Below, piece by piece: positions 43,793-44,730 of a stretch of DNA of 64,000 nucleotides. The notes beneath the pieces are model-generated. The model did no database searches. It saw only the letters and a program-made list of their open reading frames with translations, and was not told the DNA's origin. Origin of the DNA: Escherichia coli (GTDB taxonomy: Bacteria; Pseudomonadota; Gammaproteobacteria; Enterobacterales; Enterobacteriaceae). The stretch is taken from NCBI RefSeq assembly GCF_050320075.1, contig NZ_CP190018.1, one strand, 5' to 3'. Position 1 is the stretch's first letter. Each line of letters opens with the position of its first letter. Made by a program: the position numbers and the translations under genes.

Positions 43793-43840
43793 TTCGCTTT
43801 TTCTCAATAATACGTACCAAACGCTGGTAATGACTCCAAC

Positions 43841-44344
43841 TTATTGATAGTGTTTTATGTTCAGATAATGCCCGATGACTTTGTCATGCAGCTCCACCGA
43901 TTTTGAGAACGACAGCGACTTCCGTCCCAGCCGTGCCAGGTGCTGCCTCAGATTCAGGTTATGCCGCTCAATTCGCTGCGTATATCGCTTGCTGATTACG
44001 TGCAGCTTTCCCTTCAGGCGGGATTCATACAGCGGCCAGCCATCCGTCATCCATATCACCACGTCAAAGGGTGACAGCAGGCTCATAAGACGCCCCAGCG
44101 TCGCCATAGTGCGTTCACCGAATACGTGCGCAACAACCGTCTTCCGGAGCCTGTCATACGCGTAAAACAGCCAGCGCTGGCGCGATTTAGCCCCGACGTA
44201 TCCCCACTGTTCGTCCATTTCCGCGCAGACGATGACGTCACTGCCCGGCTGTATGCGCGAGGTTACCGACTGCGGCCTGAGTTTTTTAAATGGCGGAAAA
44301 TCGTGTTGAGGCCAACGCCCATAATGCGGGCAGTTGCCCGGCAT
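43841..44344 (-). CDS. insB: IS1 transposase InsB (expressed as the InsAB' frameshift fusion)
   Basis: 167-aa ORF; the A-run frameshift site (ttttttaaa on the plus strand) lies in the insA/insB overlap. Confidence 0.93.
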
Positions 44345-44538
44345 CCAACGCCATTCATGGCCATATCAATGATTTTCTGGTGCGTACCGGGTTGAGAAGC
44401 GGTGTAAGTGAACTGCAGTTGCCATGTTTTACGGCAGTGAGAGCAGAGATAGCGCTGATGTCCGGCGGTGCTTTTGCCGTTACGCACCACCCCGTCAGTA
44501 GCTGAACAGGAGGGACAGCTGATAGAAACAGAAGCCAC
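44263..44538 (-). CDS. insA: IS1 protein InsA (transposition inhibitor)
   Basis: 91-aa ORF with a Cys-rich N-terminal zinc-finger region ([28 protein letters not shown]). Confidence 0.93.
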
Positions 44539-44730
44539 TGGAGCACCTCAAAAACACCATCATACACTAAATCAGTAAGTTGGCAGCATCACCCCAAACG
44601 CTTACCTTTCAGGTAAGCGTTTTGACGATAAGCCCAACATCATTAAGCCAATACATACCCCATATCCAACTTGAACAACATCGCGCTTATCGTTAAGGTA
44701 TGCGCGTTTTTTATCCGCCAGGACCCAATT

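Follow-up and report, generated by a model that had tools for sequence, protein, structure and literature searches.

IS1 as described from E. coli and Shigella is a 768-bp element with 23-bp ends, carrying insA, which codes for a zinc ribbon and an HTH, and insB′, which codes for a DDE domain, the two being joined by a -1 frameshift at an A6C motif, and it generates a 9-bp duplication of its target. Its insertion sites are reported to be enriched in genomic islands (PMC8764528). The element also carries an outward-facing -35 in its inverted repeat, and hybrid promoters can be formed if a -10 happens to be suitably spaced (PMC8764528). Among IS1 insertions upstream of genes in ST131, afaA was expressed more strongly and osmB less strongly, while ugd was unchanged (PMC8764528), and hybrid promoters with IS1 have been listed for acrEF, blaTEM-6 and bla (PMC9330008).

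The locus described here lies within a 64,000-nt stretch of E. coli DNA (hereafter the window), in which an IS1 stands between ilvN and uhpA. The window copy is like reference IS1 in length, in its 23-bp ends, in insA/insB′ and the A6C -1 frameshift, and also in its 9-bp target duplication and its AT-rich, acquired target region; the element itself shows no difference at all, and only its insertion site is particular. We searched 5,426 complete E. coli genomes with the sequence spanning both junctions and with the same sequence from which IS1 plus one 9-mer had been excised, and found the identical both-junction arrangement in only two of them, YZLc1-3 (chicken feces, China) and Ec-U3 (human urine, Burkina Faso). 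The published upstream cases, namely afaA, osmB and ugd (PMC8764528) and acrEF and bla (PMC9330008), resemble the window in that IS1 lies upstream of an operon with an outward, -35-like hexamer facing the gene. In contrast to those cases, the window has a poor -10 (TACCTT), a distance of 137 bp to the ATG, two intervening hairpins and an untouched conserved uhpA-proximal region; outcomes among the published cases range from activation to no effect. The element is well known and its site is rare, nothing about it points to an unusual mechanism or effect, and we consider it very probable that this is an ordinary, recent and near-neutral IS1 insertion that fell within the untranslated tail of a two-gene segment gained by horizontal transfer. 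The element and its junctions comprise the following features, given in window coordinates:

43817-43825: left copy of the target-site duplication, CCAAACGCT, identical to 44594-44602.
43826-44593, minus strand (transposase genes): complete IS1, 768 bp, with 100% identity to annotated IS1B-family copies.
43826-43848: right inverted repeat (IRR) of IS1, GGTAATGACTCCAACTTATTGAT, 78% complementary to 44571-44593.
43841-44344, minus strand: insB′ frame with the DDE domain (DDE_Tnp_IS1), from the ORF and a Pfam match (PF03400, 2.3e-78).
44263-44538, minus strand: insA, 91 aa, from the ORF and Pfam matches (PF03811, 3e-21; PF12759, 1.7e-30).
44559-44586, minus strand: inward promoter-like site in IRL, CTGCCA-16-TATGAT, from a promoter scan.
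44571-44593: left inverted repeat (IRL) of IS1, the uhpA-facing end.
44594-44602: right copy of the target-site duplication, CCAAACGCT.

An earlier reading of the window, made from its sequence only, had described a complete IS1 with a perfect 9-bp target duplication, and this was borne out by the 768 bp at 43826-44593 and the CCAAACGCT on either side. Genomes with an empty site carry one copy of CCAAACGCT only, and the probability that one given pair of 9-mers matches by chance is 4^-9 (3.8e-6). Read in the direction of the window, the element opens with GGTAATGACTCCAACTTATTGAT and closes with the reverse complement of GGTGATGCTGCCAACTTACTGAT; these terminal repeats are 23 nt long and imperfect, with 18 of 23 bases complementary, and both the size and the repeats are those of IS1. 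Over its full length, the element matched at 100% many RefSeq chromosomal copies labeled “IS1-like element IS1B family transposase,” and near-full-length IS1 matches occurred in 4,950 of the 5,426 complete genomes, at a median of 11 places per genome. The scores for PF03811 (InsA), PF12759 and PF03400 in the IS1 ORFs were all far above their cut-offs, and an A6C slippery site (AAAAAAC on the minus strand, read as GTTTTTT at 44281-44287 on the plus strand) joins insA to insB′ by a -1 frameshift. The same IS1 copy has a RefSeq annotation in two genomes, both times as an intact transposase that involves a programmed frameshift, and it is not flagged as a pseudogene. The element in the window therefore shows every defining feature of IS1 that a sequence can show, and it is already known and annotated as IS1 in public records. 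Both insA and insB′ are directed away from uhpA and toward the island gene. The promoter-like site in IRL likewise reads into IS1, away from uhpA, and its position (44559-44586) is presumably that of IS1’s own insA promoter.

The DNA into which IS1 was inserted differs strikingly in composition from its surroundings (35.5% GC, compared with 52.4% in the flanks), and it contains two ORFs upstream of the insertion:

40500-44669: accessory AT-rich segment between ilvN and uhpA, 3,393 bp once IS1 and one copy of the duplication are subtracted, 35.5% GC.
40752-42047: first island ORF, 431 aa.
42302-43792, plus strand: second island gene, a 496-aa ORF (RefSeq start 42323).

K-12 has 10 bp at the position of this segment and 75 bp in total between ilvN and uhpA; homology to K-12 ends at the ilvN stop codon (40499) and restarts at 44670, 61 bp before the uhpA ATG. 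Calling the segment an island, as had been done from the letters of the window, was thus appropriate, given the 3,393 bp that run from the ilvN stop codon toward uhpA in place of the 10 bp in K-12. The IS1 target lies 24 nt past the stop codon of the second island gene, in a neighborhood that is 64% AT within 50 bp, and the insertion point is inside the foreign DNA, 76 bp outside the 61-bp uhpA-proximal stretch. The landing of IS1 in an AT-rich island fits the reported enrichment of its sites in genomic islands (PMC8764528).

At 25% identity over approximately 380 residues (E = 4e-23), the two ORFs of the island (431 and 496 aa) are paralogues. Neither gave a match in Pfam, NCBIfam, PADLOC or the sequences of the PDB, nor did a tblastn search of plasmids return anything. 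The RefSeq annotation of the first ORF is confined to its final 160 codons (41565-42047); because the alignment with its paralogue covers residues 71-416 of the 431-aa version, we think that RefSeq probably under-calls this gene. The equivalent region of O157 is divided between two short genes. The 18-nt sequence ATGAGCGATTTTTGATAG occurs twice without a mismatch, at 40533-40550 and at 42129-42146; each copy precedes one of the paralogous genes by about 200 bp, and the pair may represent a regulatory site that the genes have in common. An inverted repeat with 15-bp arms, AAATTGTGCCAGAGA / TCTCAGGCACAATTT (40573-40605), lies 74 bp past the ilvN stop codon, at the left end of the accessory segment, and may act as the terminator of ilvBN in strains with the island; the usual hairpin is displaced 4 kb downstream in these strains. 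Accessory DNA of different kinds recurs at the point 61-71 bp upstream of uhpA (loci L004 and L006), which is occupied by the two-gene island here, by a three-gene variant in O157 and by an unrelated DUF6708 gene in Ecol_448, with no such DNA in K-12.

Between the IS1 and uhpA, we identified the following features:

44580-44608, plus strand, facing uhpA: possible weak hybrid promoter, TTGGCA (in IRL)-N17-TACCTT (just past the duplication), proposed from sequence.
44596-44622, plus strand: stem-loop AAACGCTTACC-TTTCA-GGTAAGCGTTT, then one extra T, intact, on the uhpA side of IS1.
44670-44730, plus strand: 61-bp uhpA-proximal stretch, aligned to K-12 and matching in the other E. coli genomes compared.
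44671-44699, plus strand: candidate uhpA promoter, TTGAAC (44671-76)-N17-TAAGGT (44694-99), proposed from sequence.
44682-44706: terminator-like hairpin CGCGCTTATCGTTAAGGTATGCGCG, then TTTTTTAT, within the conserved 61 bp.
44731-45321, plus strand: uhpA, 196 aa, intact, from RefSeq.

The distance given earlier for IS1 upstream of uhpA was correct: exactly 137 bases (44594-44730) separate the end of IS1 from the RefSeq ATG of uhpA at 44731. The sequence-only reading had further placed IS1 at the edge of a terminator hairpin. It does lie at the hairpin, though not at its edge, as the staggered target takes in 7 nt of the left arm and the insertion is consequently inside that arm. Because these 7 nt are within the duplicated 9-mer, the hairpin is intact on the uhpA side of IS1; a full copy is already present at 44596-44622 in the actual sequence, and the in silico excision by which it had been reconstituted is not needed. 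The insertion parts the island gene from its hairpin and leaves the halves of the hairpin together. When we folded the actual sequence at 44594-44629, we obtained a 12-bp stem of -15.9 kcal/mol (z = -5.9), and no shuffled sequence folded as well.

In the uninterrupted site, this stem-loop begins 26 nt past the stop codon of the island gene. The notion that it is the terminator of that gene was upheld with respect to the stable stem after the stop codon, but not with respect to a U-rich tract: the supposed T-run consists only of TTTT, three of which are paired in the stem, followed by GACGAT, and a terminator scan of the window and of an empty-site locus (L007) did not call the hairpin at 44596-44622. 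Given its start 26 nt after the stop codon, the hairpin may nonetheless act as a weak intrinsic terminator. The O157 copy has no changes in the stem, where approximately one would be expected at the local divergence of 4.5%, and we rejected this conservation as a sign of function since there are too few substitutions for statistical power. Searching Rfam with the hairpin and the intergenic region identified no known RNA family. The core of the stem-loop, CGCTTACCTTTCAGGTAAGCG (44599-44619), matched the conserved hairpin closer to uhpA (44684-44704; in K-12, CGCTTATCGTTAAGGTAAGCG, L005:1215-1235) at 18 of 21 positions, and when 5,000 perfect hairpins of equal composition were drawn at random, only 1 matched equally closely. 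Beyond this 21-nt core, no homology was found between the right end of the island and the K-12 ilvN-uhpA spacer. A diverged version of the ilvBN terminator may thus be present at the right end of the island.

The 61-bp stretch next to uhpA was left untouched by the insertion. In most genomes, homology to the empty-site query starts at query position 224, which is the same point as 44670. In the K-12 version of the hairpin at 44682-44706, the 10-bp stem is perfect and the T run longer, and the scan calls it a terminator immediately past ilvN; the hairpin in the conserved stretch is a better terminator-like candidate than the one at 44596-44622. The only sigma-70-like arrangement that we found in the conserved stretch, TTGAAC-N17-TAAGGT, overlaps this hairpin; we consider it the likeliest uhpA promoter, and it would place the transcription start at the 3′ edge of the hairpin. 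A literature search for a mapped uhpA promoter or start site yielded nothing usable. The stretch is kept beneath differing upstream DNA, namely ilvN in K-12, the island described here and the DUF6708 gene in Ecol_448, which argues that uhpA needs no sequence upstream of -61. The genes uhpB, uhpC and uhpT, located 3′ of uhpA, are all intact, and RefSeq gives no pseudogene flags.

Taken together, these features are best explained as follows. A single intact IS1 transposed recently, with a 9-bp duplication, into the AT-rich 3′ untranslated tail of the ilvN-uhpA segment in one E. coli lineage. The transcript of the island gene would now enter IS1 through IRR, antisense to insB, and would probably end inside the element. 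IS1 is classically polar in both orientations, and it is for this reason that we expect the island transcript to end there. On the uhpA side, nothing functional appears to have been lost, as the stem-loop, the 61-bp stretch and uhpABCT all remain in place, and IS1’s own transcription is directed away from uhpA. We infer that the event was neutral or nearly so. There is no sign in the sequence that IS1 disturbs uhpA, and the altered uhpABCT expression that had been suggested earlier finds no support there. If island-bearing strains need a promoter or read-through from upstream of 43817, IS1 would sever that supply. The importance of the insertion appears small, and the main value of examining it is a negative one: the hairpin is undisrupted, nothing in the conserved region next to uhpA was touched, and the locus is not a hotspot for IS1.

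Of the explanations that compete with an ordinary, near-neutral insertion, the one that survives best, although we regard it as improbable, is that of a selected regulatory change, in which either IS1 blocks island-derived transcription into uhpA or a hybrid promoter raises uhpABC. In the blocking version, UhpA, UhpB and UhpC would be lowered, the induction of UhpT would be cut and fosfomycin uptake would be reduced, and the loss of uhpA, uhpB or uhpC is indeed an established route to reduced fosfomycin susceptibility (PMC12926222; PMC11963563; PMC5352689). It is also in favor of selection that the window matches a urine isolate, Ec-U3, and that the carrier subclone is found on two continents; this spread is compatible with neutrality, without being proof of it. 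The hybrid-promoter version draws on the ability of the outward -35 of IS1 to form hybrid promoters with site-dependent outcomes (PMC8764528), and TTGGCA-N17-TACCTT does exist at the junction. However, while its -35 (TTGGCA, 44580-85) matches at 5 of 6 positions, its -10 (TACCTT) matches at only 3 of 6, giving a total of 8 of 12 that falls under the threshold of the scanner, which made no call. A weak new hybrid promoter is conceivable but not expected; its transcript would have its 5′ end within the hairpin and would thereby escape it. Speaking against either version, the 61-bp conserved stretch and a full copy of the hairpin still stand between IS1 and uhpA, the DNA upstream of -61 differs widely among lineages, and even complete deletion of uhpA in EHEC raised the fosfomycin MIC only 2-4-fold (PMC5352689). 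We hold it to be quite improbable that, in the carrier subclone, IS1 shifts basal UhpABC, by upstream cut-off or through a weak hybrid promoter, and so changes glucose-6-phosphate-induced UhpT and fosfomycin uptake; if true, this would add to the examples of insertion sequences that adjust a pathway for the uptake of nutrients and antibiotics. Our literature search returned no reports of IS1 upstream of uhpA, nor of YZLc1-3 or Ec-U3.

Selection would also be at odds with the frequency of IS1 near uhpA, which is that expected by chance. We compared the number of genomes with a same-orientation IS1 within approximately 1.3 kb of uhpA with the number expected from the genome-wide density of IS1, and observed 8 genomes where 7.7 were expected; we accordingly rejected both an IS1 hotspot and repeated selection upstream of uhpA. 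Apart from the two carriers, six further genomes had such an IS1, in one of which the element had inserted cleanly into a different island, 205 bp upstream of uhpA, and was flanked by a 9-bp duplication of its own. In another of the six, isolate 30224_1#305 (NZ_OZ040331.1, L003), an IS1A at 2505-3272 of the locus, without a target duplication, joins the interior of ilvN directly to a position 35 bp ahead of the uhpA ATG, which is an IS1-associated adjacent deletion. This copy has the same orientation as the one in the window and likewise lies between ilvN and uhpA, but it deleted its flank without a target duplication, whereas the window copy deleted nothing. Lost with the deletion are the 3′ end and stop codon of ilvN, most of the hairpin and the candidate uhpA promoter. 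It is a candidate uhp-down, fosfomycin-relevant allele. NZ_OZ038787 looks to have the same IS1 deletion.

The earlier view that the insertion was a simple and probably recent transposition was confirmed by its distribution. Against the two carriers, 939 of the 5,426 genomes contain the uninterrupted site, and none of these 939 has an IS1-sized insertion there. A close relative with an empty site, strain 266917_2, is equal to the in silico-excised window at 9,822 of 9,824 bases, with both mismatches far from the site. More broadly, 95-130 genomes are at least 99% identical over 19-25 kb of the flanks and carry IS1 here only in the two cases, so that the comparison with relatives lacking IS1, proposed earlier as a check, yielded about 100 near-identical genomes that are empty at the site. 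The flanks around IS1 are ordinary chromosomal context, colinear with those of relatives, and the insertion is simple, recent and without rearrangement.

The two carriers are the best-scoring matches to the left flank, above all others, which fits descent from a single event, and their pattern as a whole fits one event inherited by a subclone. We consider it very unlikely that each instead gained an IS1 of its own at a preferred target, such as one made by the hairpin. The carriers do come from different hosts and continents, as might be expected of separate gains, but they share the same orientation and the same 9-bp duplication and are 100% identical over at least 19.6 kb; their left-flank scores point to a shared subclone, and a preferred target would be hard to square with the lack of any IS1-sized insertion in the other 939 genomes that have the site. 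That IS1 might mark a larger event, be it the end of a composite transposon, the junction of an IS1-mediated deletion or inversion, or an assembly artifact, is effectively refuted, for although IS1 makes adjacent deletions, with one found at this very locus in NZ_OZ040331 (without a target duplication), the window copy has a perfect 9-bp duplication, is colinear with the empty-site relative for 4.5 kb to the left and to the right and, over 19-25 kb, with many genomes, has no second IS1 (by seed match) within the 64 kb that could form a composite, Tn9-like transposon, and shows identical junctions in two separately deposited assemblies.

The insertion is a useful marker of one E. coli subclone and shows that IS1 is active in that lineage. 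The carrier chromosomes have 22-26 IS1-containing places each, compared with 2-19 among the relatives listed. The window is equal to Ec-U3 at every compared position from 34400 to 64000. YZLc1-3 differs from the window only from 63715 on (63715-64000), where the iatC repeats are out of register, presumably reflecting a difference in repeat number in this inverse autotransporter gene.

Two further observations concern RNA matches in the wider region. The uhpC-uhpT spacer (48269-48391) gave a sub-threshold Rfam match to “Vibrio RNA AS5” (RF02818) over the full length of the model, at 43.9 bits compared with a gathering score of 96 (E = 7e-7). The istR antitoxin RNA (RF01400, 145 bits) was found at full length at 38054-38183, adjoining tisB, as expected for this region.
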